A stretch of DNA of 62,727 nt, counting the filler, from Kipferlia bialata (taxonomy: Eukaryota): NCBI GenBank assembly GCA_003568945.1. It is 4 parts of 4 records of this genome, joined end to end, with 100 filler letters (N's around TTAATTAATTAA, not from the genome) between each part and the next. Parts side by side here need not be neighbours in the genome. Positions count along the whole stretch, not along the records: positions 58,744 to 62,727 come from BDIP01000289.1; 3 more parts are not named here. One strand, written 5' to 3'. Under the pieces are notes generated by a model. That model had not been told where the DNA came from. It was given only the letters and a program-made list of their open reading frames with translations, and made no database searches. The translations under genes and the position numbers were made by a program. This document shows positions 19,443 through 62,727 of the stretch, in pieces; the stretch's first letter is position 1; the number at the start of each line of letters is the position of its first letter.

Positions 19443-19485
<43 letters not shown>

Positions 19486-24700: not shown

Positions 24701-24800
24701 NNNNNNNNNNNNNNNNNNNNNNNNNNNNNNNNNNNNNNNNNNNNTTAATTAATTAANNNNNNNNNNNNNNNNNNNNNNNNNNNNNNNNNNNNNNNNNNNN
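24701..24800. other. Artificial contig linker N44-TTAATTAATTAA-N44
   Basis: Six-frame stop cassette centred in Ns, identical at three sites. Confidence 0.97.
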
Positions 24801-26915: not shown

Positions 26916-27027
26916 GTGACGGTAGCTCCAATGTGGGAGCTGTGTACACAGAGCTGAGGTATATGTGGAATACATATACCTTGTCAATATACTCTATACT
27001 ATATCTTGATCTCTATTTGCATGCGAG

Positions 27028-27073
<46 letters not shown>

Positions 27074-33000: not shown

Positions 33001-35969
33001 CTTCGGATGCAAGTAATAGCGTATGTGACGTGTCGTGTAATGCACTAACCCCAGGCTGCCGGTCTTACATGGCAGACCGTGGGAAGGGTCACACTGGAGG
33101 GTAGGGTCTCGACAATCGATGGAGAGAGCGACTCTGACCTCTCGTCGCGTGTGCTGCAGTCCCTGTCCCTCACCCGGGAGGCCCTCTCTGTCTCTATGCC
33201 CTCTGACTCATCCGCCACCTTCCCAGGCTGCTGCTTCAGACTGACCCCCTCCTCAGCCCCTGTCATCACATTCTCCCTCCCCTCTGGGCCTGTCTTCTCC
33301 ATGGAACTCTCGGGGTCTCAGCCTGCTGTGCCCTCTCTGGATGTCCTGCCAGCCCTGGCATACTCTACAGGTATGGGATATGGAGTTACACCCATTCGTA
33401 TCTTGTATAAATGACTCTCGCTCAACTCCAGGTTACCTTGTGTCCCCCTCATCAGCCTCTGCTGTCAAGGGGCCAGGGTCCCTTGGCGCCAGTATCAGGT
33501 AGAGCGAACACCGGACCAGTGTATGTGTTTGATATCTCAAACCTACTAACCCACAGGGGTAGCAAGAGATTTGTGCAGCCTGCGGGTTCCTGCACCTCTG
33601 CTCTTCTCTCCCTCTGCGTCCCACCCATTGCATCCACCATCTCTGCTGATGAGGATACCCCCTCAGAGCCTGTGTCTAACCCGCCCTGTCTGCTGGTGGT
33701 GGCTGCCAAGTCTAACGAGTCGGCCCAGGTACTGTGCGCTGTTCTCTCTCTCTCTTTCTTTCCATCTCACCACCACATCTCACACCAGGATGTGCCACGT
33801 GTGTCAGGTAGCCTTGTGGGTGAGGACGGGTCCCGTCTGTCTCTGTTCCCGGAGGCCGACTCCTCGGTCAAGTTTGTGGACACACTCGTCAACCCCACAG
33901 ACTCGGGGGATATCGACAGGTACTATTTTGAGTCTACTTTGGTTTCCTGTGACCCTATTCCTGTTACTTATCCCACCCTTAGGTTGATGCTACTGAGAAG
34001 TGGTGCAACCTGTACCGTTGGGTTCCGCGCCTTCCTCGTTGCCCCCCATGCACCTGTCTTCCTCAGCCTGGCAGCCAACTTTGTGTTTATCCCTCCTTTC
34101 AAGACCAGCGTTCTCCAGGTATGAATGTGTAGCGTTAGAGAGCATTCCCTGTTTTCTTCTCTTTCCTGACACTCACTCCTCAGGTTCCTGGTCTTCTCTC
34201 CCCCTCTCTGCGTCAGGACATCATCAAGGTGTCCAACAACGTGGCCCAGGTATAGTCTGATGGTTTTCTCTTGTGAATTTCGGTTGCTGTTTAACGCTGA
34301 CCCCAGACCCTTGGCTCCCCTCAGACCCCTGTCCACGAGGAGGCAACATCTAGTAGACTGGTGGACCCAGTCAGATACACCACAAAGCCGCTAGGTACGT
34401 ACGCCACTTCGCTATTGATAACGGACGTGTTTGTTCTGACCCCAGGTGTCCAGCTGTTGGTTTCCCTTGGAGATGAGACTCCTGGGACACGCGGTGTGTT
34501 CAGTTACAATGGAAAGTCGCCCTATCTGCTCCCAGGACTTGGGAAGAGCAAGTACGGCGTCATTTTTCATCCCTTTTCGCACTAGTATCCACTCCTCTCC
34601 TTCCAACCGCAGGTCTGGTCTCGATGACTCTCGGTTCGTGACCCCTACTGAGATCACCAGTCTCTCTGCCGGCACAGCTGGGGAGGAGAGTACTGCTGCT
34701 AACCTCGCCCTTGTTGGCGGAGAGCCCCTGGTCTCAGCCCGTACCATGGTGGGCACAGGCTCAGACCCAGGTATTGGTTCTACACGATATGGTTGGTACT
34801 TTAGGCTACGTACTATGCACTATGTTTATGCCTAATACCAGTTGGCAAGTTCCTTGTCAAGTGCGATGCCGACTTCTTCAAGGGAGAGGGAGACACAGAG
34901 GGAGAAGATAGTGAGAAGGGTCGGGAGTCTGTTCCACCTGTTAAGCCTCAGGACCCCAGGATGCCCTACCAGTTACAGTATCCATTCATGCCACAGGTTG
35001 GGATGCACGGTGTATTATTATCTAGCATTTGGTGTCCACACTTAGTCTACTCCCAGAGCAAGACTCCGTCCCCCAAGCCCTTGTTCGATGTTGGCTACAC
35101 TTTGCCTTCCCTTCGTACTGCCGCAGCCCTCGTCGGTGCCCTGCACCCCTCTCTCAAGGCAGAGTGCGGTGATGAGGGAAGGATCCAGGTGAGTCAAGGT
35201 CACGATGATGTATGTAGATAGGCACAATATTGTGATGTCTCATTTCCAGGTTCTGGCCACCCCACATGCCAGCGTTGATCAGACGCCGTCTTCCAAGGGT
35301 GTAGAGAGAACTGATGTGGAGATTGGAGTGGAGTTTGGAGAGCTTCCGGAGAGGATTCACGTCCATGACACATTCACACTCGAAGTGACACTGACATGTA
35401 AGGTGGGGGTTGGCGGGAGTTCTGAGTGTGTCCAATTGTCACTGACTCTGATACTAAATGGATGTGTGTACTGACCCTCACCCTCAGGGCCTGCCTGCCC
35501 CAAGGCAGTACAGCATGGTGGTGGATGACCCCAGTGGGCACCTGCGTGTGTCAGGGGCCAAGGCTAGGTACTGGGGCGTTGTTTATTCTGGCAGATAGAT
35601 ATGTTTGACGGTTACATGTGCTTGTGGGATACGACTCACCCTCCAGACTTGTGACCCTGACCCCGTATACCCCATCCTACACTGCATGCATACACGTGTC
35701 CCCTGTGGTGCAGGGTGTCATACCTCTGCCAGTTGTGCATGTACAGTCCATCCTGCCCGCCGCTGACCTCATGCTAGATGACGAGGTGGGTGGCTACTAC
35801 TGAAGCTCTAGTCTGATACGTTATATGTATGTATCGATTCCCTCACTGACAGGATGTGGAGCTTGAGGATGAAATGGCAGTCGAGGGAGTGGCATTTAGG
35901 ACCTACGGGGCCTTCAACCAGCCCCCTAGAAGGGGAGAGGGAGTGGCCAGAAGCATCTTTGTGATCTGA
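26825..35969 (+). CDS. TRAPPC11: TRAPP complex subunit 11 (gryzun/foie gras); start codon uncertain
   Basis: PEGALSRDWLRKHSEEIPATLIALY (cf. PKGILKxxWMNKH...PALVVVFY); GAHAYYTSKLKRESK; C-terminal gryzun Ig-like LPERIHVHDTFTLEVTL...VSPVVQGVIPLPVVHVQ; stop TGA 35967-35969. Confidence 0.7.
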
Positions 35970-38469: not shown

Positions 38470-40206
38470 ATGAACCCTAACCAGCTGCTCGGAATCCTCC
38501 AGGCTGCGGCCGGTGGTCAGCAGAGTACGTGTGAGACGTTTTGGCTGTGTTGTGGTGTCTGTTGTCCTCCGGGAGTATAACTATGTCCTATACTCGTCCT
38601 CTACGCATCTTACCCAAGGTGAGGCAGGCAGCCAGGCTCTTGCATCCCTCACAGCGGCCAGGACCAATGATTTCGTACGTTATTATTCTCTTTCAAAAGT
38701 TTTCGCCTGTAATCTTCTTGCGGCAGTTGAGTTGACGTCGCGGCTATTTGTTGTATTGACCGCGGATGGGAGCGTATATGGTTATTGGTCACCCAGTTGT
38801 TGATGTGGTGGATTGGTGGGGATGTGGCTGTGTTTGTCGTCTGATTACTTCTTTCACATTTCGCTATGCACCTTCCATGATACTCCTCCTGACATCCATT
38901 ACCAGTGTGTTTTTACAGTGTTGTGTGTCTTGACTGTTTTGTTCTTGTGCTGATCACATTAGAGTGATAGTAATCAGTGTTTCTATGTTTCATCGTTGTC
39001 ACTCATGTCCCTATGATGTATACTGTTTCGTACTACTGCCATTCCTTTTCCTGCCCCTCACCCCCCAGCCGAACCTGGTCAGCTCCCTGGCCGACATCAT
39101 CGGATCTCCTCAGGCACACATCCAGATGAGGCAGCTGGCCTGTCTGGAGCTCAAGAACACAGTCAGGAGCCACTCCAAGAAGAGGTATGAATCTCTTGGT
39201 TTATCCCTTGTTCATGTGGCATATGACCATTGTATATACTTCAGTACACCACAGTGAGTCATAGCCCCCCCCCCCTCCCTCTTCAATTTAATCCCACTAC
39301 CTGGTCCCTCCCCCTCACCCCAGGCTCAACTCCATGGCTGCCCGGTGGCTCAGTCTGCCCCAGGAGCTCAGGGAGAAGGCCAAGGCCGTGCTGCTGCAGG
39401 TGGGTCACGGTTATAGTATATATCTTCATTTGTTACGTTACTTACTATTCACCGTACACCTCATCAACTCGGATGTCCCCTATGACCTCTCTGATACCAG
39501 GCCCTTGGTGCCCCCGAGGCCCCCATTTCTACAGCAGCCTCATACGCTGTGGCCCAGATTGCTCTCATTGAGATCCCAAGGTAATATGCTCTGTGCACTC
39601 TCTCTCTATTTAGCCATTATTGTTCTCAATCACCATACTACATATTACACCAACCTTTCTCCAATGTCTCCCCGTCTCCCCCCCTCACCCCCAGAGGTGC
39701 CTGGAACAACATCCTGAGTGAGATGTGCAACCAGGCTGCCACCAACCAGTCCCCACACATCAGGTGTGTAATATCCACGGTTATCTCTCTGTGTGTATCT
39801 ATCCCGAGTAATCATTATGTGGATATGTCTAGAGTCTGTCTATGAGTACGTGCCGCCATATCCACCATGTATATATTGATTTGCATGTATATCCACACTC
39901 TCACCCCCCCCCCTCTGTCTCTCACCCCCAGGAGGGCTGCCATGTCCACCGTGACTGAGATCTGCCACGAGCTCTTCTCCAAGGACGGACAGTTCAAGGT
40001 CCCCGACTCAGAGGTATGGGTATCTGCGTATCTATATGTATCTCTCCCCCTCCCCACCCTTCTTCCATCTCTTAGCCTGCGATCTGTTTAGTAAATAACT
40101 CCAACCTTGTTGTTGTATCCCTTATCCCAGGTCAACATTGTGCTCCAGGCTGTGTTTGCCAACATTGACAACCAGAACCTGGCTGGCATGGCCGTCAAGA
40201 CACTAG
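38470..40206 (+). CDS. KPNB1: Importin beta-1 (Kap95), N-terminal part only
   Basis: MRQLACLELKNTV...ARWLSLPQELREKAKAVLLQALG...AASYAVAQIALIEIPRGAWNNIL is the IBN_N domain plus the first HEAT repeats; breaks off at a poly-C run. Confidence 0.85.
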
Positions 40207-40268
40207 GTATATGCACATGGATATATATATATATATATATGGTAATGTATCTGTTCCAAGCAATCCTG

Positions 40269-40299
<31 letters not shown>

Positions 40300-40422
40300 C
40301 CCCCCCCCCCCCCCCCCCCCCCCCGCTCCCTTCCACACCCATCCACCCCAAGATCATAGATCACTACCTGGGCTCTCTCTCCCCCCTCTCTCCCTCTCTC
40401 TCTCCCCCCCTCTCTGACCCAG

Positions 40423-40526
40423 GACATCCCCAGGGGCACATGCATTCTAACTGAGGCACCCATGCTGGAGTACAGGGTGGGCATGAGTGAGGAACAGGTC
40501 CTGGGGGGCCTCTCGCAGGAGGACAG
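40423..40526 (+). CDS. Isolated exon resembling a SET-domain N-terminus
   Basis: DIPRGTCILTEAPML...LGGLSQEDR, with a good acceptor and donor; lies between poly-C runs at 40269-40324 and 40619-40671. Confidence 0.45.
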
Positions 40527-40617
40527 GTATGATGTATATATATATATATACGTATATACACTGTATCCTCTATATCATGCTGATACTGACACTGATTCAG
40601 GGATATAGTTCTGTCCT

Positions 40618-40662
<45 letters not shown>

Positions 40663-40712
40663 CCCCCTCCCAACACGATATGTATCCAGGTGTATCTGGC
40701 CCTCACCTGCAG

Positions 40713-43700
40713 ATGTGTGTCTCGATGAGGTAGAGCACAGTGCACCTCATACCTCACAGAGTGTATCTGAGGGAGGTGTATTGGATGTACTAGTGGATGT
40801 GGAGTGTCTGAAGGAGGGAGAGATAGAGATAGTGGAGGAGAGATCCGAGCATTCGGTGTCGTATGATGCAGAGAGTGGGGAGAGGGAGGGAGGTGACCTA
40901 GAGGCTGGATCTGCAAGTGGTGTTGATACACCTGTTGATACCCCTGCCTCAGGTCATAAGGCCAAGCTCGCGTTCCTAGGGACAGAGGAGGTATGGGTAT
41001 ATATCGTATATGCATTATGACACTTTGATACTCTCTCTCTCTCTCTCTCTCTCTCTCCCCCCCCCCCACTATTGTCTCCCTGTTTCTCATGCATAGGTTC
41101 CAGGCTTGTCTGCTACTATTCTACCTTCCTCATCTTATCGATAAGGTCTATTAGCTTGTCCTCAAGATATCTATTCTCTCTCTCACTCCTTCAGGTGTAC
41201 AAGCTTGTGCTCAAGATTGGCATCCCAAGCATGGTGTCCTTTGCAATCATGGGAATGTATGTGCCTACTCTCTCTCTCTCTCTCTCTCTCTTTCCCTCTC
41301 TCATCCCAGCTATGGTGTCGTTGACTCCATCTTCATAGGCAGGATGGTGGGGGCAGAGGTATGGGACGTATACCTATATATATATATATATGTATATGTA
41401 TATATATATATGTGTATAGTGTGTGTTTCATATATCTATATAGGACTCCATCTTCATAGGCAGGATGGTGGGGGCAGAGGTATGTGCTATATATACATTC
41501 ATACACATATATAGTGTGTGCATCTCATCAATTAATGACATATGTCTGTATATGACTCCATTTTCATAGGCAGGATGGTCATGGCATGGGGGCAGAGGTA
41601 AGAGATGTACTACTACTATAGTTATACTCGTGATAAGTAACCCCAGGTCCTCACAGCCATCAGTGTCTTCTTTGTGATAGAGAAATCAGTCATATATAGA
41701 TGTATATTACTATATATGTTTCATATACCTATGTTAAGATACATTGATGGTTGGAGTATCTGACACTAGGCTCTCACAGCCATCAGTGTCTTCTTTGTCA
41801 TTGAGAACTCAGTCATCAATGGACCCATGATGACACTGTGCCAGGGGGTGGCTCCAATGATGTCTAGGTATATATAGATATACACACACATATGTATGTA
41901 ATTGTTAGTGTGATATGTAGTATATATGCATATACTCTGTCATTAATGGGCCCATGATGACTGTGGCACCCATGATGTCGAGGTACTTCTCTCTCTCCCT
42001 CTCAATATATATATATATATGTTTGTACTAATTCACATTACTCCCCTGTCTGACCCCCAGGGCCCTCGGTGCTGGAGACAAGGCCAAAGCGAACATGGTG
42101 GGTTATCCATTCCCTTACAATTCTCTCCTTCTGTGTCTACGTAGTCGACCTCTGTCCTCTTTGTGGCTACCTATCCATTTCTCTGGCTCTCTCTCTCTCT
42201 CTTTCTATCATTCGATATCAAGGAGTCCAACCTCAGATGATTCCATCTGTGTTTGTGGCTGCTATCTTACCACTCTCTCTCTCTGCCTCTCTCTCTCTCT
42301 CTGTCATTCGACAATATTGACATCCAACCTCAGATGCTGACCTCTGTGTTTGTGGCTGCCTTCCTCTGGGCTGTGCTGTGTCCACTCATACTCCTGCCAT
42401 TCCTGCCAAGGTAGTTAAACTACTATACTTGGGCAGCATACTTGAATGTGGACATATGCATATATGTCCACTCCTACTTCTGCAATTCTTGTCAAGGTGG
42501 GCATTCGCACTCACTCACACACACACACCCGTATATATATATATAGTGTGAGCTGCTTACACCAGCATCTGCAGAGCCATTGGTGTCTCTGACACTGTTG
42601 TGCCTTATCGTATGGCAGGGTCATATGTCTACCTCTCCATATATATATATATATATATATACATAACACATGCACTGACATCAGGATATGTACCCTCATT
42701 GGTGTCTCCGATACCGTTATGCCCTATGCCTTACAGTATGGCAGGGTCATATGCGGACTGGGGTCAGGGGCATTCTGGCTCATGAATGGATCAGGGCCAT
42801 TGCTGAGGTATATGAATGTATATGCATAAGGACAATAATATATATGGTCTCAGGGAGTGAGACATGATTCTGTATAGTTTCATTTCACTGATGTGAGATT
42901 TCTGTGAATACTTACACGATAGGGTTGAGAACCGCGCCTCTCTCAGCATGGTCAGACTCATTGTGTCATCGTGTATGAATGCAGCACTGGACGCACTCTT
43001 CATGGGTGGGTGTATGTATATATGTATCTATACATATATCCGCATATACTATATTTCATTAGAGTTACATTGATGCAGCACTGGACGCACTCTTCATGGG
43101 TGGGTATATGTACATGTGTTTATGCACTAGTATATCATGATAAGGACAATAATATTGCATACGTAGTGCTATATGCATCTATATCTAATAGTGCAAGTGC
43201 GTTCAAGCGTGCCATCGCACCACTCCTGTATCTAAGCTGTGTGTTAGTATTGCATGTGTATATAAATATTTGTTGTCTCACTGTCCAGGTGTGTTCAAGT
43301 GGGGCATCACGGGTGCCGCCCTGGCCACAGTGTGTGCACAGTACACAGTGGGGGGGTACCTGCTGTGGTTCTATGCATCGCCTAGAAGTAGCTCTCAGGT
43401 AGGGGGGTGCATTAGCTCTAACAGAATACATTATATATAGTTTCTGAATGATAATGTAGATGAATGAAATCATGAATATATGATTCTCCCAAGATTGGGT
43501 CCATGTATCACCCAGGACCTGCTCTCAAGTATTAGGGTATTGCATGTTCGTTTATATGGCTAGCTGTTCATTGTTCGACATCTGTAGTCCTCTGACCCCC
43601 AGCTGCAACTGATGTGGACGCATGTACGGCACTTCCAGGCCAGGTGTGTGTTCATCTATCGTGTATTCACGTATATGTTACCACTGAGTGTTCCATCTCT

Positions 43701-46700
43701 CGGTATCTACACATCTATCTGCCTATCTGTCTTCATATTCGTCCTTACCCCTAGGGTGGCAGGACGGGCACTGGTCGTGGGGTCACCCCACATGATAACA
43801 CTGGTATGCACCTGTTTGTTTGAGTATTGTGTCTATCTACTGTACTGTGTCACTTTGGGTTTGACTAACAATATCATACTGTGCCTGAAGTAAATATACG
43901 AGATATACGACAGACCCCAGGCCATCAACGGTGCCATCCAGATTGGAGTTGGAATATGTATATACCTCTTTATATACAAATATGTGTATAGATCCATATA
44001 ACCCCAGGCCATCAACGGTGCCGTCCAGATTGGAGTTGGAATATGTATATACCTCTATATATATACATATATGTGTATGGAGATGCATATAACCCCAGGC
44101 CATCAACGGTGCCATCCAGATTGGCATCAATACTATGCTGCAGAGGACAATGGACAACCCTGATGCGGCTCAGGTATGTATATACATATGTAGGGATACA
44201 TATAGTATATATGTGTATTTGCATATAGTGATGTATGTGTGTCCTTAGATATATCATGCTGCAGAGAACAATGGATGACCTAGACGCTGCTCAGGTACTG
44301 TATTCATGGATTATGACAGATATATATATACAGATAGATGAGTATATATACCTCATACATCCTCTGCTCCATCTGACTATATTTGTATGAATGATATTGA
44401 GACTTCCTGTTACTGATACTACGGCTTGGTATTGCAATGGAGTGGTATTATGTATTCTACTCATCTTACATATATGTGAATATGACAGTACCCATACAGT
44501 GATCAATCTTGCATCTGACCTTAGGCTGGCTATGGGCTTGGTCTTAGGGTGTTCTTCATGGTGTTCTATGGAGTGATGGGCATGGAACAGGGTATGGACT
44601 GAGAGGCTATACAAGTATACATGTATTTTTGTACTGAGGATACTTTTTAGGGTAAGGACTAACTATTTTCATGCCAACTTGGTAATGATCTACTATGTCA
44701 AGTGAGTTGAACCATGTTTATCTCTCTTACCCTCAGCCATGGTATATATGTGTATATATGTATGTGTGTCCATATGAGTCTGAAGCATCTGTCTTACCCA
44801 TAGCCATGGTGCCTGTGGCTGGCTTCAACAGAGGCGCCAAGCAGTACAGACGGGTGGTGGACGCTATTAGGTGATTATACACATATGTATCATTTTCTGT
44901 ATATATGTATATATGAGTATAAGTATATATATTTTCTACCGAGGGGCCAAGCAGTACAGACGGGTGGTGGAGGCGATCAGGTACATATACATACACATTT
45001 CTATTGTTTCCTGTATGTGTCTATGTGTCTATGTGTCTATGTGTCCGTGCCACATTGTCTCTATAATTTTTTGATATAATCCTGTAGCATCAACGACATA
45101 CTATTTATGCGATCACGTATGCGTACACACTTTGACACAAGGACCACCCTGACCTACTCCTGTGTCATAGCTGTAGTGTCAGGCCTGGGTTGTGTCCTGG
45201 CCTCCGAGTCCATAGCAGGTCAGTATAGTCGGTATATATAGAGTTACTGTTACTCATACTGATACTGACACTGACTAGTATCTATACTGACAGTTATAAT
45301 TATGCAGCATCTATACTGTTACTCATACTGATACTAATAACAGGTCTCTTTTCATCAGACCCAGAGACCATCCAGTATGGCAGCACCGTAATCAAATACG
45401 TGAGTACTATTAATTGTATGGGATATCATGATATGCTTGCCTTCTCCATATAACTAGAGACCGTCCAGTGTGGCAGCACAGTCATCAGATACGTGAGTGT
45501 CTGTCTACATCAATATATGTTATTGGCGTTGTCAATTGGTCATATATCCAGCCCTTCAGAGTCTGTCCCCTATCTTACTCACAGTCATTTCAATGTATTC
45601 TGCCTCATGACATTTCCATGGGTGTTCAATGTATAGAATAAATCCTTCACTTACCTCTCTCTCTGACTGTTTAGATCCTGTCCCCTGTGTTCCTCACAGC
45701 CATCACAGAGGGCACCGTCCTGCTCTTCCAGATAGAGGTATGTATATCGGTCATTATACCCGGTGTATACACATGGTATATATATACATGCAGGAATCGT
45801 TTGCTCTCTATATCACAGCCACCAAGTACTATGTGTTGTGTGTGTGTACCGCTCACTGGAGTAAGGTGCCAGCCTGAGTCTCGGGATGCTCCTAGTCCAA
45901 GTAACTCTCTCTTTATCGTTTGCTCTCTCTACATATCCTATAATCTCATGCCCAGGGCAATGGCCGGACTGCCATCCTGCTCAAGCTCTTCAAGACGTGT
46001 GGGATGCTGGTCTTTGCATACATAGTCCCATGGACGCTGGAGAGGTAAGGGCAATGTTACATACTATACATAACTCGTATTCATACACATATACTATGCA
46101 TGTGAGTGGGTATTCATATATATGTTTAGTCCCATGGGCCCTGGATAGGTGGGTCAATCGTCGTCCAATGGGACCCAATGTTCACTATAGCTAACCGCAG
46201 ACGCTCTGCCTCCCAGACCACCATCTTCAGATAGTACCAGATACCTCATATATATATACATATGTATGTACGCAAGTATATGGTTTTCCAGTATATGTGA
46301 CCAACCTCACCCCAGCCGGTCTGCCTCCCAGTCCACCATCTTCCACTCCACACTCCTGATGTTCCCTGTCACAGACATACTCACGGGGAGTATCAGCATA
46401 GGCCTACTCATAGTGCAGTGCAGGTTGGGTTTTAGTAGGATTGTATATATTCATGTAATCACATGCTGTATATAATATCTCCACAGTATATACATGTATA
46501 TAGTCACATGGAGTGTCTGGAGGGGACTATTCTTCAGTCTTTGTCTAGTCATCCTTCACTTACATTAGAAAGATCCTTGCCCTGTGCTCCCATGTCACTG
46601 TAGAGTCTGACCCGGTTGGCGCTAGTACTGGCACTGACACTGTTGGGAAGGCGTCTGGGGAGGGAGAGAGACACACACACATGGTCAATGCTCCAGAGTC

Positions 46701-49447: not shown

Positions 49448-49547
49448 NNNNNNNNNNNNNNNNNNNNNNNNNNNNNNNNNNNNNNNNNNNNTTAATTAAT
49501 TAANNNNNNNNNNNNNNNNNNNNNNNNNNNNNNNNNNNNNNNNNNNN
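49448..49547. other. Artificial contig linker
   Basis: N44-TTAATTAATTAA-N44. Confidence 0.97.
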
Positions 49548-50349: not shown

Positions 50350-50733
50350 TCACTCCTCATCGGAGTCACTCATGGCTACGTCTCCGTCGTCGTCGTCCTC
50401 TGCCTCTGGGGCAGGGGCATCCACGTCCACAGCCATGCCACCCCGGCCAAGCTGCAGGGCAACACTGTCCTTGGACGCCTGGGTGCTGTCGTGGAACATG
50501 TACTCGGCCTCGTGCTGCTCGAGGTAGTCACAGCTCCTACGCACATCGAGGAACAGGGAGTACACCCTCTTGATGTCCTCCACACCCACCTCCTCCACCC
50601 CTCTGCGCTGGGCAGCCAGGGAGGCAGTGGTGATCAGCTGGATGGCGTATCTCAGGGAGGCCTCCTTGGCAATGCGCACAAGCAGGGCCATGGCATTGGC
50701 AGCCAGCTCCACATCCTCCTCCTCGGCACGCAC
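50350..50733 (-). CDS. RUVBL2: RuvB-like 2 (reptin/Rvb2), last exon only
   Basis: RAEEEDVEL...EASLRYAIQLITTASL...EVGVEDIKRVYSLFLDVRRSCDYLEQHEAEYMF; acceptor ctaactcgcag. Confidence 0.9.
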   Translation of the reverse strand: MRAEEEDVELAANAMALLVRIAKEASLRYAIQLITTASLAAQRRGVEEVGVEDIKRVYSLFLDVRRSCDYLEQHEAEYMFHDSTQASKDSVALQLGRGGMAVDVDAPAPEAEDDDDGDVAMSDSDEE

Positions 50734-50759
50734 CTGCGAGTTAGAGACAGAGGTGGAAA

Positions 50760-50802
50760 GGGGGGGGGGGGGGGGGGGGGAGGGGGGGGGGGGGGGGGGG
50801 GG
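50760..50802. repeat. Poly-G run at the dynein/RUVBL2 junction
   Basis: About 42 G seen directly. Confidence 0.85.
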
Positions 50803-50883
50803 TTGGAGGGGGAAGGTTGAGGGGGGAGGAGAGAAGAGAGGACAGCTGGGTCATCACTCCACAGCTGCCCCCTCTCCTACCAG

Positions 50884-50919
<36 letters not shown>

Positions 50920-51049
50920 CACAGGGGAGGGTGGGCAGAGAGAGGGTCATCACTCCTCCTCCACCCACTCTCCCCCTTACGCACTACCACGTACCTTGGC
51001 ACCTACCTATCCACAAGGACAAAGAGACACAGAGAGTATCACGTCTTAC

Positions 51050-54000
51050 GTATCATAGCGACAGTACGGAACAGGGCCTTGAGGTTCTCAGGAAGCTCCT
51101 GACGACCGGCATATCCTGCAGTGAGATGATGGCACTAACAATAATGACTCTAAAGGGCACCAATAGACACACTGCGTACCGGGGTTCATTGTGATGAAGA
51201 AGGAACACATCTTGTTGAGGGGCACAGTCTCTCCGTCAGTGAAGACAAACTGCTTCTTGCGCTCCTGGGAGTGAGGGCCACAACCAATAATGAGTCAATT
51301 GTACTACTAAGTACACACCTTGAGAGCGGTCAGCACACACTGCAGCTGCTGGGCTGCGACAGACAGCACCTCCAGCTCAATGCGGTTGAACTCATCTGGG
51401 GTCAGGCAAGGATACACTTTGAATCTACATAGGGAATTGTGTCAATGTGAATGAGATAATTGTTGAACACGTACCGAAATCTCCCCAGCAACCGGCCTGG
51501 GCGAGACCTCTGAAGATCTTCCCGAGTCCCTTGTAGTCCATCTGATCGGAGCAGTTGAACACAACAACGAGCATTCCGAGGGACTTTCCCATATCCTTGA
51601 CAGTCTCAGTCTTGCCTGTTCCTGGGGGTTAGGAGGGTGAGAGAATATGAGAGAGAGAGAGAGAGAGAGACCACTCACCGGCAGGTCCAGCGGGGGCACC
51701 TCCGAGGAACATACCGATAGCCTGGGCAAGGGTGATGTAGCATCTGGGATGAGTAGATATCATAGAGAGTGCCATAAACAATGGAAGTCGAATGATCCCT
51801 CACACACTGCATCCACTCCACTCACCTATCAGTGAGGGGTGTGATAACCAGACGCTCCTGGGTTCCCAGGTACTCGTAGTTGTAGCGGAAGTCAATATCT
51901 GGGGTGGGACATCATCGGTACAAGGGAGAGAGAGATGCAATAGAGATATGTACAACGCACCAGTGATCTGGATTCTGCAGAAGTCTCTGTCGACGTCCCA
52001 GTAGGCTCTGGTCTGCTTGAGCCACTCAAAGTCAACGGGGGAGCGGATGCGCTGCTTCACTGTCGGTAAGACGAGTCATAGAAAGAGACTGAGAGAGATA
52101 ATGTGTGTGTGTAAGGAGAGAAGGTAGAAAGAAAATGAACTCACGCACCGAGCTGCTCAAAGACATCCCTCTGGTGAACCTGGATGGTCACAAGGGTCTC
52201 AACAGTCATCCTCTGGCGCTTGGTGAGCTCCTGAGGGTGAGAGAGGGATGGGCTTGAGTATAATATACTACATCATTGAGTGAATTGCACGCACCGTGGT
52301 TGTGAGGACAATCATGGTGTCGAGCACGTCGTTGACCCTCTTGAGGGTGGCGCCCATGATGGACTTGTCGGTCTTGGCCATCTTGAGGGCCTGCTCACAG
52401 ACGGCAGTCCACAGGAGCTGGATGCCGAACAGGGAAACCTGGGCGGGGAAGGACTCGATGAAGGCGGGCAGGTCCTGGGTGAGCACGTCTGCCGAGGCCG
52501 AGCGCATGACGTCCTTGATGGACCTCTGCATGGCGCCAATGAGGTCGTTGAGCCAGTCCTCGATGTTGCCCTTGGCCTCGACGGGCTTGGAGAGCTCGAC
52601 GTACTCGCCGAGCCTGTCGTTGAGTCCGACAACCAGGCCACGCTTGACCCTGTCGAAGGTGATCCTGTTGACAGAGTCGAAGATGGAGGACAGATGGGGC
52701 TGGACGGCCTGGGGTGAGGGAAGGGGGGGGGGCGGGGAGGGGCATAGTATATGAACCCATTGCTTAAAGGGTTACCTTGGGGTCAGACTGCTGTCCGAGG
52801 ATCTCGAGCAGTACGGGGTCAGACACAAAGTAGAACCTAGGGAACAGGTTTCTCTTCTGCTCGAGGTATCCGGACAGGGACTTCTGGCAGATCTCTAGCT
52901 GCTGAGGGTGAGTGGCTGGACCACAGTGTGAGATTGACAATAGACAGAAGAATACTAACTATTGTTAGTATACACGTACCTCCAGGAGGTAGGGCAGCAC
53001 CGACTTGAGGGTGTCGTCTGAGTTTGTGAGGTGGACGACATTGGGGGACTGGACAGCGGTGCCCATGATGTTGATCCACTTGGAGTCAATGTTGGAGAAC
53101 CTCTTGGCCTCCTGGGGCAGCTGCAGCCTGATGTCTCCACCGGAGAACACAGCCTCGAGGTACAGCCAGGACTGCTGCACCTGGAGCCACAGGTTGAGGA
53201 TCTCCTCAACGGTGGACAGGGCCTTGACCCACCACACAATCTTCTCCTTGAAGAAGGCGTTGTACCTGTTGGACACGAGGGATCCAAGGATCATCTGAAG
53301 GTGAGGAGTTATAGTAATAGAAAGGGTAGTTATAAACATCAATCCCCCTAACCTGTGTATCCTCGAGGAGTGCAATGAGCTCACTGGTCTCAGATGGAGC
53401 CAGGAGCAGGAGGCCACGGGTCTTGAACTGCTCAAAGTTGAACACCTGGTCCTGCCAGTCGACAGACACCACACGCAGCTTCTCCTCGATGTCAAGCTCC
53501 TTGACGGCGCTGTTGCAGATATCCTCGATGTCCTCCTTGTTGTCGAGGAGGGGGGCAGCCAGAAGGGCCTTCAGCTTGAAGTTCTCGACATCGTCAAACT
53601 CGAGCTTGGTGCCGCACAGGCTGGAGATGGTCTCCCAGTGCCTGGGGGTGAGTATAAGAAACAAGGTATAAAAAGGGAAACAAGAAATAGTGATATTGTA
53701 CCTTGGCTTGACGGCGTCGTTAGAGAGGAGCTGGAAGATGGGGAGGGACTCGCCAAAGTCCTCAATCTTCTGCTTCAGCTCGTCATAGGCCTGCCAGGAA
53801 CGCATGGCCTTGGGGAGCCTGTTGCACCTGGACTGGTAGTCACTCATCTGCTCGGCAATGACGTCGAAGTCAAGGTCGACCCACAGCACATCGCCATAGC
53901 CTAGTGGGTTAGTAAGAATAGACACACGCAATGGAGACTGGTCATCACATACCGTCGACAGTGGTCAGAACGTCAGTGTACAGGCCGTACAGAGCGTTGA

Positions 54001-57000
54001 GCAGCTTGAGCTCCTTCTTCATCTGGACCATCTCTGAGGGGTGAGAGATGGTGGGGTACAAAGAGGCAACTATGACCACAATAACACACCTGGGTAGGGG
54101 GTGACTGTCAGTCCGAACAGCTCCTCTCCACCGCTGTAGGTCTGCCACTTCCTCTCCCTCTCGGAGAAGCCTGGGGGTTAACAATTCAACTCGCGTAGAG
54201 AGAGAGAAAAGAAAGAGAGATACCAAATACCCGTACCAGCCTGGTACTTCTTGAGTCTGATCACAGCCTCCTGGGGGGCAATACCAGCAATGTTGGGACC
54301 GTTCCTGTTGTAAGAAGAGGACAAATGAAGAGTAGGGATACACAATAGGGATAGCGATACCTGTCGTAGTCTGCCTTAAACTCAGCCACGTCCACAACAA
54401 ACTCCTTGACGTTGCGGATGAGGTCGGTCTTGAAGCCCGGCTGGAGCTTCTTGAGGTTGTCCTGCACACCGACAGCCCTGGTCTGCAGCTGCCTGAGTCT
54501 GTAGCGGAGCTGGTCCACGAGCTCCGACTCGTCGGAGGAGACCCTCACGACGTACTTGGACAGAATGGCGTAGGTATCCTCGATGGGGATGATCCTGTGG
54601 TCGATCTTGGACTCGACCTCTCTCAGCTCAGCCATGTACGTCATGGTGGTCCGGACATCCTCCAGGTCGTCAACCTCCTGGGGGTCAGGGGCGGTATTCA
54701 GTCAGGATGTTAGAACTTGTGATGTAGACTGACCTTGGAGAGAGCCCTGTCGGTCTCGTCGATGAACTCGTGCAGCTTTATAAGGTCGCTCTTGGCCCTC
54801 TCGTTGAGCTGGGCGCCAAAGGTCTGCTTCCAGGCCCTGGCCTGACAGTGAGAGGGAAGGTATAGGAGATAGACATGGAATAGAAACCGTAATCTGAGGC
54901 ATTACCTCACTGAGGAGTGCGTTGATGAGGGGGGACGTGTTGATCTGGATGATACCGTACTGGGTCAGGGTCTCAAGGTCTGGGGTGAGTGGGTGTATAC
55001 ATAGACGCTGGATGGTATGTACACAAACATACTCACCCTGGAGCTGCTGCTCGATCTGGCCGTACTTCTCAATCTCGGCAGAGAAGTCCTCGAGGGTGGG
55101 CTCCTGACATGAGATGCATCCGAGGTTAAACATAATGTTTGTGAATCTGGGAGCGGTGTACCTTGCTCTGGAACTCGGCGTACACCTTGGCCTTGTCTCC
55201 AGACCACAGTTCGCTGTACTCACTGGCCTAGGGGTGAGGGACACACTGAAACCAAACATGGAAATATTGTGTGATGCATAGCGTGTACCTGTCCGAGCTG
55301 GTTGTTGACCCTCTTCTGGCAGGACTCAAACACTCCGCACAGGGTGATGATGGTCTTGAGGATGTTGCGAGACCTGGACAGCACGGGGTAGAAGGTGTCG
55401 GTGGGGTCGAGGTTCTCAGCCAGGGCCCATAGGGTCACGGGCTTCTCACTCTGGGGGTAAGGAGATGGTATTTCCAAGAGAGTCTACAAAAATAATAATG
55501 ATGCTCACCTTCTTGACCCTGGAGTTCTCCATCGGCCTGTCTCCTCCCTCCCTGTCCTTTCCCTCCTGCTCCTCCCTGGCCTGCTGCACAGCTGGGGGTG
55601 AGAGGCATGCAAAGTATGATAGATGACGAATTAGCGTATAGGGTATTTAACACATACATACCTCCGAGGATGGTGTCGAGCTTGTTCTTCTTGGGCACGT
55701 GTCTGGACACAGACAGCACGCTCTTGATCAGCTCGTGCAGGGTCCTCCTGAGGGTGTCCCAGGTGGGGGAGAGGCGGATCCTGGGGGTGAGCACTCAGAT
55801 CATATTCTGTTATGGATAATGATACATACAGGGTCAGTGAATATATATATCTATACCTTGGGACCACCAGCTCCACGTCGACAGAGATGAAGGGGGCGGG
55901 TGCCACAATGAGGCCTGTGGTGGGGTCCTTGTACATGTTGCCACTGGCGGAGGTGGCCGAGGAGGACTTGAGGGAGGTGGCGGTGGCCATGAGCTCGGCC
56001 CTGCCCACCTTCTCGGCCCTGATGCGGAAGAGGATGGCCCTGAAGGTCCTGTCAGATGCGTCAAAGATGGCGGCACCGATGGCCTCGTGATACTTGAGCA
56101 GGAACTCGGTGGTGGGGTTCACCTCCTGGTCCTTGGTGGTCAGGGAGGCCAGAGACAGCTTGGAGCGGGTCTGGGGGTGAGGACGGAGAGGTGAGAGGAC
56201 GGAGAGGTGAAAGGAAGTACAGGCTCAGAACATGGCGAGATATGGGTTAATGGAGCAGTATGTACCTTGGCAATCTGGTTCATGACCTCCTCGTTGAACA
56301 CACTGTTCTGGCGCACCATGCCCTTCTGGAGGGTAAGAACGTGTTGCATACCCAGATACTTGTATATTGTATGATACCCACTGCCCCTACCTTTGGTGTG
56401 GAGACCTCAGAGGGGGCGGATGGCTTGGTCCTCTTGACCCTGGAGTCGATGAGCCTGACAACGTCACAGACGGCAGAGTGCACAAGCTGGGAGTGGAGGG
56501 AGATGGCGGTGGCGGCGTTGCGGACGTGTGCCTGCTGCTTCCTCAGGTACTCGTGGTGTGTCATGCTGGGGGTGAGACTACACGTACACATGGAATGGAC
56601 ATTACATACAGATGATGGGGGTAGATTGAGAGGTTGAGATACCTCTCGTAGTCGATCTCCATCTCCTCCTCGGAGGTGTCGATGGTGTAGACAGGCAGCA
56701 CACACAGGCAGGTGTCAGCGATGGACTGGAGGGCAGACCTCACTCTCACGCTGAGGATGTCAGCCACAGCCTTGCAGGTCTCCTCGAGCCTGTCGCACAG
56801 ACGGTGGCAGGCCTGGGAGTAAGAGGGAGACTGGACACTTCAGATACAAAGGAGATATCGAATATATATAGCATATGTACCTGTGTGTATGACCCGATGT
56901 TGAGGGATGTCCAGCAGAGGGTGCGGAGACCCAGGGACAGGCGGCGGTCAAGCTGTCCGACCAGGGGTGCCACCATGTCTGTGACAGGGGCAGGGATGGT

Positions 57001-58593
57001 GGTGGTGACCTGCTCAACACGGTCCAGGAGGTGCTCGAGAGCGGCCCTGGTGTCAAAGAATGTATAACCAATCACTTTCATAACAGGTAGATATAATGAT
57101 GTATATGTCTGTACCTGTGCTTGAACAGACTGGCCTCGTGGATGGTCACGGCCTTGGCGGTGTCAGGGACAGAGAGACCTGACATGAGGGGAGAAAACAA
57201 ACACATACATAGAGAATAGTCCACACATACATACACTCACTCACCCATCTTGGCGAAGTGCCTGGCCTCAGCACAGAGGGACACAATGGTCTGGTCGAAG
57301 TTGACGTAGAGCTTGCCGGTGGTGGGGTGCTTGACCAGAACAGTGGCCTGGAGGGCGTGCCTGGCCTGGTCCACGGCCTGCAGCCAGGACTCGTGCCAGA
57401 GGCCCTCGAACTGGACAAGGGCCCTGCTCAGCTTGTTGTAGATCTTGACGGCCTTCCTGCCAGCCTGGGGGTGAGACAGAAGCAAATACAAGTGATCACT
57501 ATGTAATGTACATATAATAATAGTACGAACCTTGGAGGTCAGGAGGTGAGGGGCTGTCCTGAAGTGGGACATGGGCTCCTCGATCCTCTGCAACAGCAGT
57601 CTGGACCAGGCAATGGGACCGGCGAAGGGGGTCATGTCTCTGGGCACAGGGGGGCTGTTCTTGTAGACCTCATAGAGTCTGGTGATGGTGACACACTCCT
57701 GGTAGAAGCGGGTCAGGATCACGTCGTACTTGGCCCTCAGCATCTGGCGCAGAGAGTCCCTGGGGGGTCAGCACAGAAGAAAAAATGTTTAGGCCCAAAT
57801 GTATATTACAATAGCTACAGTACCTGGAGAGGAGCTTGTGGAGCTCCCTGAAGACTGTGAGCAGCTCAACGGATCTGACAGGCCTGTTGAAGGTCTGGTC
57901 GATGAAGACGCGCAGCTTCTCCTCGAGCTCAGCTACACCCTTCATGAACACAGCGTAGTCTGGGGGTGAGGGAATGGCAGATGGACTTATACATTGGTAT
58001 ATACATTAACACATGTCCCGTACCCTTGGAGAAGTGCTCTCCCTGCCTGTGGTCCAGGAGGTCGTAGTTCTTGCGCAGCTTGAGGCTGTTCAGGAGCTTT
58101 GTGAAGTAAGCCATGATCTCGTCCAGGCCAGAGAGCTGGCACTGCTGGAGGTTGCTGAACTGGAGGGCGGTGCTGAACACGTTGATGAGCTTCTTGATCC
58201 TGCCGCAGAACAGGTCAAAGTTGCCAAAGATGGCAGCCTGGGAGATAAGGACAAAAGAACTATATCTTCAATTGGAACATATAATAATCAGATCATAAAT
58301 GGTGATACCTGGCTGAAGTTGAACTGCTTGCTGCTGGGCTTGGCAGCCAGCCTCTCGGAGATGGCGTGGTACTCCCTGAAGGGTGAGAGGGTCAGTCATA
58401 CCCATACACATATATAGACATATCATTAAAGAATGTGTAATTAGAAGTACCTCTGGTATGTCTCGTTGAGTGCGAGACAGTCCACCATGCGCTGGACCAG
58501 GCCAGCCCAGTCCATGTCCCACAGGGTCCTGTCCCCGTCATCGTATGCAACCATGTTGTCGTCATCGTCATCACCGTCCTTCTTGGCCTTGGC
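51050..58593 (-). CDS. DNAH5: Axonemal outer-arm dynein heavy chain, gamma type (DNAH5/8-like): tail, linker and most of AAA1; partial at both ends
   Basis: [117 protein letters not shown]. Confidence 0.9.
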
Positions 58594-58643: not shown

Positions 58644-58743
58644 NNNNNNNNNNNNNNNNNNNNNNNNNNNNNNNNNNNNNNNNNNNNTTAATTAATTAAN
58701 NNNNNNNNNNNNNNNNNNNNNNNNNNNNNNNNNNNNNNNNNNN
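58644..58743. other. Artificial contig linker
   Basis: N44-TTAATTAATTAA-N44. Confidence 0.97.
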
Positions 58744-58769
58744 CTCCCAGGATCAGTGCTGCCATCATT

Positions 58770-58816
<47 letters not shown>

Positions 58817-58840
58817 TTATACCCCCAACTGATCTCCCAG

Positions 58841-59308
58841 GATCAGTGCTGCCATCATCGGTCTGTGCAAGCCAATCAGCGTAGGTATGATGTATGGTAT
58901 ATATATATGTATATAGAACTATGTATATATGTGAATGTGTATCATTGGTCTGTGCAAGCCAGTCAGCGTAGGTAAGATGTATGATGTATGTATATAGTAG
59001 TTCTATATAGTAGTTCTATATATGATCCTGCACGCCGCTCTGCGTAGGTACATCTCCATCTATGTATTAGTGTGAGTGTGTATATCTATCTCAACATGTG
59101 TATCATCTGTGCAAGCCAATCAGCGTTGCTAGTGGTACACACAGATGCGCTGACTACTCTCCTGATCTTCTGACTGTCTCTCTCTCTCTCTCTCTCTCTC
59201 CCCCTACTTAGTTGTTGCCAGGCCTTCCCCATTTTCACGACCCCACTTTATGTGTATCCTCTCTCTCTATAAATATTTGTATATCCTCACCCCAGAGGAC
59301 GACCGTAT

Positions 59309-59340
<32 letters not shown>

Positions 59341-62136
59341 TCTGTGTGTATATATACGTATATACCCTCACCCCAGAGGATGACCGAGCTGACCAGGATG
59401 ACATCCCGCTGGAGTTTGATGAGGTATGTATTCACAGATTTATAGTATACATTACATTATAGTGTATATATGGTATTTATATATATGTATATATAAACAT
59501 ATACTATGTATATCACCGAGCTGACCAGGATGACATCCCACTGGAGTTTGACGAGGTATATACATATATATACACAGATATACAAAAACACATATATATG
59601 ATATGTGTGTAGTGTGTGTCCCACTGGAGTTTGATGAGGTGTGGATGGGTAATATACCCTACATACACTATATATACCACTCTAACACCCTAGGAGGCCC
59701 CATTTCTCTATTGGGAGGGTGACAGGACAAGAGACATATACATATACCATATACATACACTCACATTTATAACACTCTCTCTAACACTCTAGGAGGCACC
59801 ATTTCTGTACTGGGAGGGTGACAGGACTAGGAGACCGATCCAGCGCAACAACAATGTGCCAGTGGACAGGATACTCAGGGGAATGGAGAAGGTACGACGA
59901 CTCTATCTATATTCATTACTATGGACGTATATACGTTTACATATACCATATTATCTGTATACATTAGTATCAACAATGTGCCTGTGGACAGGATACTCAG
60001 GGGGATGGAGAAGGTGGGTGTACGGACATGCATTTGGAAGTATTAGTGGTGTTTCGCGTATGTCTAACCCCCTCAGGACCACCAGTTTGTGAAGCGGCAC
60101 ATCCGCATATATATTTACTATATCTCGCGTATCTAACCCCAGGACCACCAGTTTGTGAAGCGGCACATCCTGAATGACCTGGATAGCATGGACAAGGGAG
60201 AGGGACTGGATGTCAATGGAGTGGTAGAGGTATGATACACTTATCTATATGTATATGTATATGTATGGAGAGGGGCTGGATGTCAATGGAGTGGTGGAGG
60301 TATGTATGTATATAGTATATATAGTATATATATATATATATCCTGAATGACCTGGATAGCATGGACAAGGGGGAGGGACTGGATGTGAATGGAGTGGTTG
60401 AGGTATATATAGTATATGTATATTGTATATAAATATATACATGAGTGTGACCTGACCAGCCTGGACAAGAGGGGCTTGTGTCGAAGGATACCCCATCTCT
60501 CTCTCTCTCTCTCTCGCTCTCTCCTTTTACACATACATAGATCCATACTCACCCCTAGTCTCAATCTTCCATCCCCTCTGAGCGTGCCATTGCCACATAC
60601 AGAGACTTCACCAGAAGGCCCAATGACAGTCCAAGCATAAGGTACACACACACACACACATATATATATGTCAGTGATAGGACAAGTACCAGTTACTCAT
60701 TTACTCCATCGAGAGTCTCTCTCTCTCTCCCTCTACACCCTCATTCCAGGCTGATTGGATCCATCAACTCAGACAGGTGTCCAGAGGAGAAGCCACCACC
60801 GGAGGTACACACTATATATTCTAGTCTCCCGATATATACCACACTAACTCGCTAGATTGCCCCTCTGTCTGAGGGTGTGGATGTCACAGAGGCACTGCAC
60901 CAGAGGAAGAGAGAGAGAGAGGCAGAGAGGGAGAGGGAGAGGGAGAGGGAGAGGAGAGCATGCGCCAACGCCAAGAGGTATCAATAATCATTCCGTACTC
61001 TATTCACCCTTGTTGCTTTTACTTTTTGGTTGTACCAATAGTGTTGCCAAAATGTAGTCCTTACTATCTCTCTTAGCTTTCTCTCCCCCTCTACACCCTC
61101 AATACAGGGACAGACTAGCAGAGGAGGAGAGAGAGAGAGAGAAGCACAAGTTCAACCCCATTGCTGTACTGGACTGGACAAAGCAGGTGTGTATTTATAT
61201 ATATATATAGAGAGAGAGAAATTCATTCTCACATAGATCTGTCTATGTATGATTTTTCTGGGTATACACGTACCCCCACGTCTCCTTCCTCTTTCTCTCT
61301 CTCTCTCTCTTTCTCTCTCTCTATATATATACTCGTTGTCTTACCCCAGGTCTCCTTCCGCCGTGCCACAGCATGCATCTATATATATATATGTCTACAC
61401 TATATGAGACTAGACATCGCATATGTCTGTATCTACCCTTATCCTCAGGTCTCCTTCCGCCGTACTATAGATGCATTTGTATATGTATATATCTATATAT
61501 ACTATACCAGACATACTATCCCATGTATATGTGCCCTTATTCCCAGGTCTCCTTCCGCCGTGCTATGGGCAGTGTCAGAGGGGAGAAGCAGGAGGTATGT
61601 GAAGATTAAGCATCCATATGTCTAGTCACTTAGAGAGTGAGAGCATGTGTGTACAGAAGTGTATCCACGACTGCATCACTCTCTCTCTCTCTCTCTACCC
61701 CTCTCTCTCTCTCCCTCTTACCCTCAGGCAGCTGAGGACGACTCTGCCGCTAGCAGTCCAGAGACAGAGGAACAGGCAAAGGTATACATGTGTATATATA
61801 TGTATATGTATATATATTGAGAGAGAGAGATAGAGGGGAAGAGGACACCAGCTCTCCAGAGACAGAGGAACAGGCAAAGGTATATATATATATATATGTA
61901 TTAGTATATATTAGTTATATTATATATTAGTATGTATATGTATATATATAGAGAGAGAGAGGGGTGGACACCAGCTCTCCAGAGACAGAGGAACAGGCAA
62001 AGGTATACATGTATAGACACATATACATGGATATATATGTATATATTTATATTAAGAGAGAGAGAGATGGGAGGAGGACACCAGCTCTCCAGAGACACAG
62101 GAGTAGGCAAAAGTATATATACATGCATATGAATAC

Positions 62137-62170
<34 letters not shown>

Positions 62171-62650
62171 CAGGAGCAGCAGAGGGAGAGGGACACCCGC
62201 CCTCAGCTGTTTCGATTCCTACAGTATACACATATATATATATATATATGTATTAGCCTAGTGATACCCCTTACTCACCCCCAGGAGCAGCAGCGGGAGA
62301 GAGACAGAGGACCAAATATCATATATATACAAATGTATATACATGTGTTTAGATACATTCGGATTGGCTCTCTCCATGTATATATGTCTATACCCTTTAT
62401 GCACTCACCCCCAGGAGCAGCAGAGGGAGAGAGACAGGGAGAGAGAGGCCGAGGAGGAGAGGGAGAGGGAGAGGGTGGCCGAAGAGGTATGTGAGACGGC
62501 ATGGTTATTTCTATACTCTACTCGTTTACGACAGGATTGTCTGAATATATAATATATATTTAATATTATATATAGTGTGCATGACTATGCGTATCCCGCC
62601 TAACCATCCAGGAGAGAGAGAGGGTGGCCAAGGAGAAGAAGCCGAAGAAG
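58841..62650 (+). CDS. Hypothetical protein with Glu/Arg-rich coiled coil; internal fragment with many short exons
   Basis: Spliced ISAAIIGLCKPISVEDDRADQDDIPLEFDEEAPFLYWEGDRTRRPIQRNNNVPVDRILRGMEKDHQFVKRHILNDLDSMDKGEGLDVNGVVE...KHKFNPIAVLDWTKQVSFRRAMGSVRGEKQE. Confidence 0.65.
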
Positions 62651-62662
62651 GTATGGAGATAG

Positions 62663-62693
<31 letters not shown>

Positions 62694-62727
62694 GGGGGGG
62701 GGGGGGGGGGGGGGGGAAAAAAAAAAC

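Follow-up and report, generated by a model that had tools for sequence, protein, structure and literature searches.

Introduction

Exon sequence can be duplicated into introns. Mutually exclusive duplicated exons are exon-like intronic copies that diverge under coding constraint and need both of their splice sites; when an intron is gained by tandem duplication, the intron is made of duplicated exon sequence. Here we analyze a stretch of 62,727 nucleotides (nt) from the genome of Kipferlia bialata (assembly GCA_003568945.1; this whole stretch is 'the window'), in which introns of several genes contain 'exon echoes', that is, truncated copies of the adjacent exon end that usually retain the splice site and that differ from the true exon with a bias toward synonymous sites. 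Judging from these sequence patterns, we think that an echo is probably a dead half-exon plus splice site that was captured from a diverged, working allele during break repair and was closed by microhomology joining.

The components of such a repair route are known. Failed synthesis-dependent strand annealing (SDSA) that is sealed by polymerase theta yields tandem duplications in C. elegans helq-1 (as described in part of PMC8654963), and aborted SDSA with end joining is described in Drosophila (part of PMC8951532). Like these duplications, the echoes are direct repeats arranged head to tail with a single junction that lacks homology. K. bialata also resembles this SDSA-failure, theta-mediated end joining system in gene content: the supplement of PMC8516963 lists it with Spo11, Dmc1, Hap2, PolQ, Mus81, Rad52, XPF, Msh2, and Msh3 and as lacking Ku70 and Rad51A (the supplement's table makes no mention of HELQ), in accord with that paper's statement that fornicates lack non-homologous end joining (NHEJ) and Rad51A and use Dmc1. 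However, the duplications from failed SDSA are 0.1–10 kb in length, are found in repair mutants, and are unconnected with exon ends, whereas the copies in K. bialata consist of 17–67 nt of exon plus a splice site, differ from the exon as functional alleles do, and are found in about half of the introns in some genes. In addition, duplications templated by a sister are identical at birth, whereas 65 of 80 echoes have unrelated flanks; because the flanks are unrelated and the splice signals are diverged but intact, a diverged template is needed.

Minisatellites at exon–intron boundaries are a second point of comparison: in human F7 IVS7 (6-16, CBS, LMNB2, and PDGF are alike) the extra downstream donors are silent (part of PMC1557585). 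As in F7 IVS7, the most upstream donor is used in K. bialata and the extra sites are silent (seen directly for one intron, and for the neighboring exons by the loose ends of a contig). However, the F7-type units are near-identical, including their intron part, and occur at single loci, whereas the intron parts in K. bialata are mostly unrelated (alike only in a few arrays); also unlike the F7 type, the echoes occur gene-wide in both donor and acceptor forms with synonymous-biased differences. Finally, crossovers in Schizophyllum concentrate in exons between parents that are 14% apart (part of PMC4209137), and synonymous diversity in S. commune reaches 0.20 (part of PMC4576712); this matches the synonymous divergence (pS) of ∼0.2 between echoes and exons, a value that for K. 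bialata is obtained from echoes rather than from a population. The Schizophyllum work reports crossover positions, and the word 'duplication' is absent from the portion of its text available (PMC4209137).

For K. bialata itself, PMC6679479 considers the spliceosome proteins (87 of 174 are present, in the part available), and the main text of the genome paper (PMC5874029, as far as available) contains neither 'duplicat', 'heterozyg', nor 'ploid' and makes no mention of echoes; it gives the number of introns as 124,912. In the literature searched (most subscription journals were outside that search) we found no description of the echo pattern; an initial annotation of this DNA had likewise known of none. 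What appears to be undescribed is not the repair route, which is known, but a form of it that is anchored at exons, acts between alleles, occurs gene-wide, and retains foreign splice sites.

Results

Our approach for finding echoes was to align each exon end in the window to its own flanking introns. The window is composed of four contig pieces separated by identical spacers (N44, 12 nt, N44) at 24701–24800, 49448–49547, and 58644–58743, and pieces across a spacer are unlinked. The scan identified 94 echoes, of which 81 keep the splice site ('anchored' echoes); the 13 matches without a splice site are excluded from the anchored statistics. In the control, 1116 tests of an exon against a foreign intron produced 1 match. 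Echoes upstream of their exon keep AG (39/45) and never GT (0/45), and those downstream keep GT (42/49) and never AG (0/49); when an intron has both kinds, the donor echo precedes the acceptor echo (11/11). None of the 81 anchored echoes has both splice sites, with two possible exceptions found by eye. Echoes contain 17–67 nt of exon (median 30); for the nearest spacer, the median length is 69 nt.

The echoes are concentrated in some of the genes: echo-bearing introns account for 44/84 in echo-rich genes and 0/90 in four other genes, the two groups having been set up after the first repeat scan. The introns of echo-rich genes are longer and more TATA-rich; within them the median intron is 271 nt if it holds echoes and 131 nt if it does not, and the median in echo-free genes is 68 nt. 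The echo-free introns of echo-rich genes, with about twice the length of those in echo-free genes, may hold intron-only captures that are invisible to us. Repeats confined to intron sequence were detected in 3 of 140 spacers (one of these appears, by eye, to be a missed acceptor echo), as compared with 81 anchored echoes, and 17/140 within-intron spacer pairs are homologous. The array at 10659–11226 is a secondary amplification of one event.

The tests that carry most weight for divergence under coding constraint are those on the flanks and splice signals. The intron flank of an echo is detectably similar to that of the true site in 15/80 cases. Even when the exon part is identical (14/81 echoes), the flank is similar in only 3/14 and unrelated in 11/14; in simulations, similarity would be recognized for 90% of copies made in cis at 12% divergence. 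Divergence is 6% at codon positions 1 and 2, 17% at position 3, and ∼30–35% in the flanks (the latter by simulation). Echo acceptors differ from the true acceptors at 4.5 of 10 positions, partly by register shifts, and their identity to the true acceptor is 0.52, as compared with 0.43 for unrelated acceptors; nevertheless, they score 3.9 bits (true acceptors, 5.8), a strength that random change (−2.8 ± 0.7) reached in 0/2000 simulations. A branch-point motif is present in 31/39 echo acceptors, and echo donors score like true donors. Because protein sites diverge less than synonymous sites and synonymous sites less than intron, with splice signals that are changed but intact, two working versions of the gene are indicated.

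The codon pattern is consistent with this conclusion but is more modest. A dead copy that is identical at birth and lies beside an exon that changes only synonymously gives a ratio of nonsynonymous to synonymous differences per site (pN/pS) of 0.5, with ∼50% of differences at position 3. The initial annotation had concluded that echoes diverged under coding constraint; the conclusion holds, but its null of uniform mutation across codon positions is wrong, as a dead copy already gives ∼0.5. For the 81 anchored echoes, 54% of the differences are synonymous, and differences at codon positions 1/2/3 number 59/41/135. The pN/pS is 0.31 for all anchored echoes, 0.34 outside the focal span (58744–60402, described below), and 0.34 when the 13 unanchored echoes are added; when each variant is counted once per exon end, the value is 0.30 (bootstrap confidence interval (CI) 0.23–0.39, 59 exon ends; P(≥0.5) = 0.0004). 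Thus, 'almost only synonymous' applies to the focal span (pN/pS 0.14), which is the extreme case, and not to the window as a whole. The share of differences at position 3 is 57% vs the null of 50% (p = 0.013). In codons of the carboxylase fusion gene that are invariant in two homologs, 18 differences are synonymous and 10 nonsynonymous (p = 0.019). Serine AGY/TCN switches occur, as do three synonymous states at one codon. Variants 'private' to single echoes are synonymous in 23/39 cases (p = 0.03 vs a null of serial birth from a changing exon), although serial birth from a changing exon can imitate this share. Gaps are frameshifting in 11 cases and in-frame in 2, and two stop codons are present; the echoes are now decaying. 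We therefore read the codon signal as real, though moderate, with decay superimposed on divergence under constraint.

The same evidence bears on tandem duplication in cis, in which the copies are identical at birth and the pattern is made by synonymous change in the exon, slippage in the TA-rich flanks, and sporadic gene conversion between the two copies. The null for such a duplication already places half of the differences at position 3, close to what is observed; the echoes with identical exon parts are as expected; differences within echoes are clustered (p = 0.002), as conversion would give; the homologous spacer pairs show that some arrays clearly were amplified in cis; and splice-boundary minisatellites such as F7 IVS7 are known (part of PMC1557585). 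However, the CI for pN/pS excludes 0.5, the flanks are unrelated even beside identical exon parts, dead acceptors that have changed at 45% of their positions should have lost the consensus that they retain, and intron-only duplicates are rare. We consider this explanation unlikely for the echoes as a class. A role swap of echo and exon in cis, one of four mechanisms offered in the initial annotation, likewise leaves the unrelated flanks with intact splice signals unexplained.

A different donor, used by the same repair chemistry, could be a homeologue or foreign conspecific DNA (from an ancient hybrid, a long-lived asexual diploid with diverged homologues, or DNA that was eaten). Echoes vary rather little in their synonymous divergence (overdispersion p = 0.12), as would follow from one hybridization; no heterozygosity was seen in the part covered by reads; and a few echoes are very diverged (18038, 42556). 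However, several exon ends have at least three acceptor types or three synonymous states, more than two subgenomes provide, so we regard such a donor as improbable.

We also considered whether the echoes are in the DNA of the organism. Read support comes from 59600–60236, where contigs from a DNA read set (X1, possibly the source run of the assembly) cover 7/29 bins. One unitig (60075–60169) contains echo, spacer, and exon in one piece at a depth of 385 (30 letters only on the echo side), and the junction from spacer to mid-exon of the echo at 60340 is present in a unitig at a depth of 250. Words of 31 letters that are common to echo and exon have a depth of 800–850, as compared with 385–455 for unique words. 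X1 contains 94% of 415 words sampled from 58744–62700; because words that straddle a junction occupy 10–15% of positions, ∼40–60% of the junction words would have to be present even if all of the missing words straddled junctions. At the tested locus, the echoes exist in the DNA itself and are no assembly mosaic. For haplotype stitching, in which the assembler would have joined two haplotypes end to end at low-complexity sequence, one can cite likely misjoins at simple repeats elsewhere in the window, the lack of long reads, and the possible identity of X1 with the source run. The last of these is no obstacle because read-derived words are independent of the joins made by the assembler; also, junctions in mid-exon would offer the assembler no usable overlap. 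Together with the unitig junctions, the doubled depth, and the word share, this makes stitching, which the initial annotation had listed as a mosaic of haplotypes, highly improbable.

Transcript evidence was obtained from a contig of a second run (X2), which is not recorded as RNA; its RNA status is our guess, and the contig is spliced. Exon 3 of the focal gene is joined to exon 4 over 251 nt (GT..AG) with the letters of the true exons only, and the loose ends of the contig are the neighboring true exons; the tested intron splices from its first donor to its last acceptor. The initial annotation had proposed searching RNA for echo alleles joined to the rest of the exon; none is present in this contig, in which the echoes are skipped. 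This bears on present use of the echoes, that is, alternative or recursive splicing or programmed deletion between direct repeats, with selection keeping the echoes coding. The splice signals are strong, the near-whole exon copy at 45458–45492 has both AG and GT, and a micro-exon is doubled (8601/8688). However, the second splice site is missing from each echo (81/81 anchored echoes have one only, unlike mutually exclusive exons), the frameshifts and stop codons contradict a coding role, and the exon chains that P0121 and P0122 match contain no echoes. Since rare isoforms are lost from contigs, minor use may still occur, but as an explanation for the echoes we find present use very unlikely.

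Other ideas were rejected. Exon-specific hypermutation fails because the flanks diverge more than the synonymous sites; GC-biased conversion was provisionally set aside as the cause (at synonymous sites, exon strong/echo weak is 45 vs 32); an origin from cDNA was dismissed by eye, as donor echoes are continued by GT and intron sequence instead of the next exon; intron gain via proto-splice site duplication has the wrong geometry; and no age order is visible along the arrays.

A proposed mechanism: break repair from a diverged allele

Of the four mechanisms in the initial annotation, unequal recombination between diverged alleles best fits the flanks, splice signals, and codon pattern. In the reading that we favor, the recombining alleles would be ∼20% apart at synonymous sites and at least 30% apart in the TA-rich introns; because only exons would be alike between the alleles, exon homology would be the route for strand invasion. 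A break, made by Spo11 or by a nuclease that cuts at TA repeats, would be resected, and one end would invade the other allele via exon homology; synthesis would pass the splice site and halt 17–67 nt (median 30) into exon sequence. The extended strand would fail to anneal because the other end would carry mismatches and terminate in intron that lacks homology (capture of a second end is impaired when its homology is limited; part of PMC7407515), and end joining by polymerase theta would then seal the gap. The expected product is the exon end, splice site, and partial intron of one allele, followed by a half-exon, splice site, and intron of the other; either the echo or the exon may be the donor copy, and the homologues may have come together through outcrossing, in a hybrid, or in a diploid of long standing. 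Survivors would leave the outer splice sites in use, whole-exon copies would be purged, and the echo would decay; unequal exchange between echo and exon would occasionally build arrays (e.g., 10659–11226).

Several observations weigh against this reading. No other letters at 82% likeness were found in the covered part (7/29 bins) of 59600–60236; no second K. bialata match was present among the three proteins found for a carboxylase exon; the focal exon has a single protein match; and a metagenome scan with P0121 yielded two loci at 25–28% identity among 307 candidate stretches and no relative. Alleles this divergent would lie at the upper end of what is known (0.20 synonymous in S. commune; part of PMC4576712). 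Distance from the exon gives no order of divergence, and junctions show a weak enrichment of TA (0.31 vs 0.27, p = 0.04). The excess at position 3 is modest, with p = 0.18 in the two protein-anchored genes alone; nonsynonymous changes are no more conservative than random (BLOSUM −0.33 vs −0.55, p = 0.15); and, since 10/32 nonsynonymous changes in the carboxylase gene strike residues that are invariant in two homologs, part of the signal is plain decay. The sample is a single window, and the exon models outside P0121 and P0122 are from a small, hand-curated gene finder.

The focal locus and other features of the window

The coordinates of the genes and echoes are collected in Table 1. The focal exon chain translates to the first 275 amino acids of P0121, a K. 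bialata TPR-repeat protein (TPR families were matched), and exon 3 is a 100% match to its residues 31–63; the carboxylase fusion gene matches P0122 over 1214 residues. Elsewhere, frames rest on open reading across exons: Pfam supported 2 of 11 single exons tried and gave no match for the other 9, including all those tried from the MATE-like gene. The labels MATE, MgsA/WRNIP1, dynein heavy chain, and importin-beta are those that we presume from the look of the sequences.

In the focal span, the script counted 11 echoes with 18.5 synonymous and 7.5 nonsynonymous differences. The echoes that the initial annotation placed here are all present in an ungapped comparison from the splice site. Its synonymous counts were reproduced near 59520, 59975, and 60267 (2/2 each) and 60340 (3/3), as was Ile>Val near 58945, to which one synonymous difference is added. 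Of the '5/5' at 59694, three are firm and the last two, at a ragged end, admit a second alignment with a 1-nt gap and one substitution; of the '2/2' near 59295, one is firm and the second lies at a ragged end. Two decayed echoes (∼59029 and 59106) were missing from its list.

Table 1. Genes, exons, and echoes in the window (true exons and echoes from 58744 onward belong to the TPR-repeat gene).
Feature	Position	Strand	Observation
AAA+ ATPase region (presumably MgsA/WRNIP1-like)	5805–11690	+	22 script matches; AAA_assoc_2, AAA
Array of five acceptor echoes, AAA+ region	10659–11150 (array 10659–11226)	+	spacers related, acceptors different
Carboxylase fusion (P0122; ACCA, HMGL-like, PYC_OADA, biotin domains)	14669–24623	−	31 echoes, anchored in 15/30 introns
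Control gene	26926–35960	+	echoes in 0/48 introns
Membrane-protein gene (presumably MATE-like)	40434–46423	+	19 echoes, anchored in 12/19 introns
Control gene (presumably dynein heavy chain)	51508–58581	−	echoes in 0/32 introns
Acceptor echo of exon 1	58744–58774	+	1 synonymous difference
True exon 1 (P0121)	58841–58884	+	exon chain is P0121 start
Donor echo of exon 1	58941–58979	+	1 synonymous, Ile>Val
Decayed donor echo of exon 1	59029–59050	+	1 synonymous, 3 nonsynonymous
Decayed echo of exon 1	59106–59131	+	donor lost; short deletion upstream
Short acceptor echo of exon 2	59281–59305	+	below script threshold; 1 firm synonymous, 1 at ragged end
True exon 2	59377–59423	+	loose end of RNA contig has exon 2 allele, not echo's
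Donor echo of exon 2	59515–59562	+	2 synonymous
Second donor echo of exon 2	59619–59646	+	1 synonymous variant, common to both exon 2 donor echoes
Acceptor echo of exon 3	59682–59742	+	3 firm synonymous, 2 ambiguous
True exon 3	59793–59891	+	RNA contig, 0 other letters; P0121 match
Donor echo of exon 3	59971–60015	+	2 synonymous; intron flank unrelated to that of true donor
Acceptor echo of exon 4	60063–60104	+	exon part identical; echo, spacer, and exon in one DNA unitig
True exon 4	60143–60229	+	RNA contig, GT..AG splice over 251 nt, two echoes skipped
Donor echo of exon 4	60267–60304	+	2 synonymous
Long donor echo of exon 4	60340–60406	+	3 synonymous; TA-rich spacer junction in DNA unitig, depth 250
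Six further echoes	61345–62307	+	AGT/TCT serine codon switch common to three

Individual echoes and copies depart from the usual form. In the MATE-like gene, a near-whole exon copy (45359–45400 and 45458–45492; 41 vs 35 nt) is flanked by an AG and a GT of its own and keeps the phase, with 2 synonymous and 3 nonsynonymous differences, and is a candidate mutually exclusive exon; a 10-nt micro-exon is present twice (8601–8610 and 8688–8697), with AG and GT at each copy. The echo at 18001–18038 (− strand) has four consecutive whole codons with synonymous differences by the acceptor and identity beyond them, and that at 42556–42627 has 5 synonymous differences, several amino-acid changes, and a 7-nt deletion.

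Other observations concern the assembly and the neighboring genes. At 50350–51000 the gene that we take to encode a dynein heavy chain stops at (TG)n/poly-C, and the final exon of a RuvB-like gene comes next, an arrangement that looks like an assembly misjoin; the database model P0001 begins inside this repeat. The RuvB-like exon is 99% identical to a K. bialata protein (next matches ≤63%), and a second RuvBL2 copy was rejected, as P0001 is the window's own locus. The presumed importin-beta-like gene breaks off at poly-C before the MATE-like gene (40206–40434), and a frame break at poly-C (6540–6640) leaves the exons at 5893–6462 out of frame with 6647. In the carboxylase fusion the biotin motif is EGPKIK, where two homologs (46% identical) have AMKM, so biotinylation may be lost or altered. 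At 1–110, a 15-nt coding unit is repeated in tandem about seven times and varies synonymously.

Discussion

Beyond the repair event itself, a broader proposal is that K. bialata is outcrossing and hyperdiverse (synonymous diversity near 0.2) and that its Dmc1-only, NHEJ-less repair regularly captures pieces of a mate's alleles at exon ends. We offer this tentatively, as a possibility that we rate below the allelic origin of the echoes. If it is correct, one genome holds tens of thousands of datable samples of other alleles in its introns. These would then serve as a fossil archive of sex and of population diversity for a metamonad, and recombination between alleles would be a route by which introns grow.

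The echoes also have consequences for splicing and for annotation. The pattern implies that a reduced spliceosome passes over consensus-strength sites that lie a median of 69 nt from those in use, and so offers a natural test of exon definition vs scanning. On the practical side, echoes mislead gene finders; the one built here called many of them micro-exons.

If echoes do come from other alleles, a single genome can be used both to test for exchange between homologues and to estimate allele divergence, without population sampling, and the echoes would show how introns lengthen. For K. bialata, a free-living protist, they would then be marks that mating has left in the genome, in a group with no observed sex.

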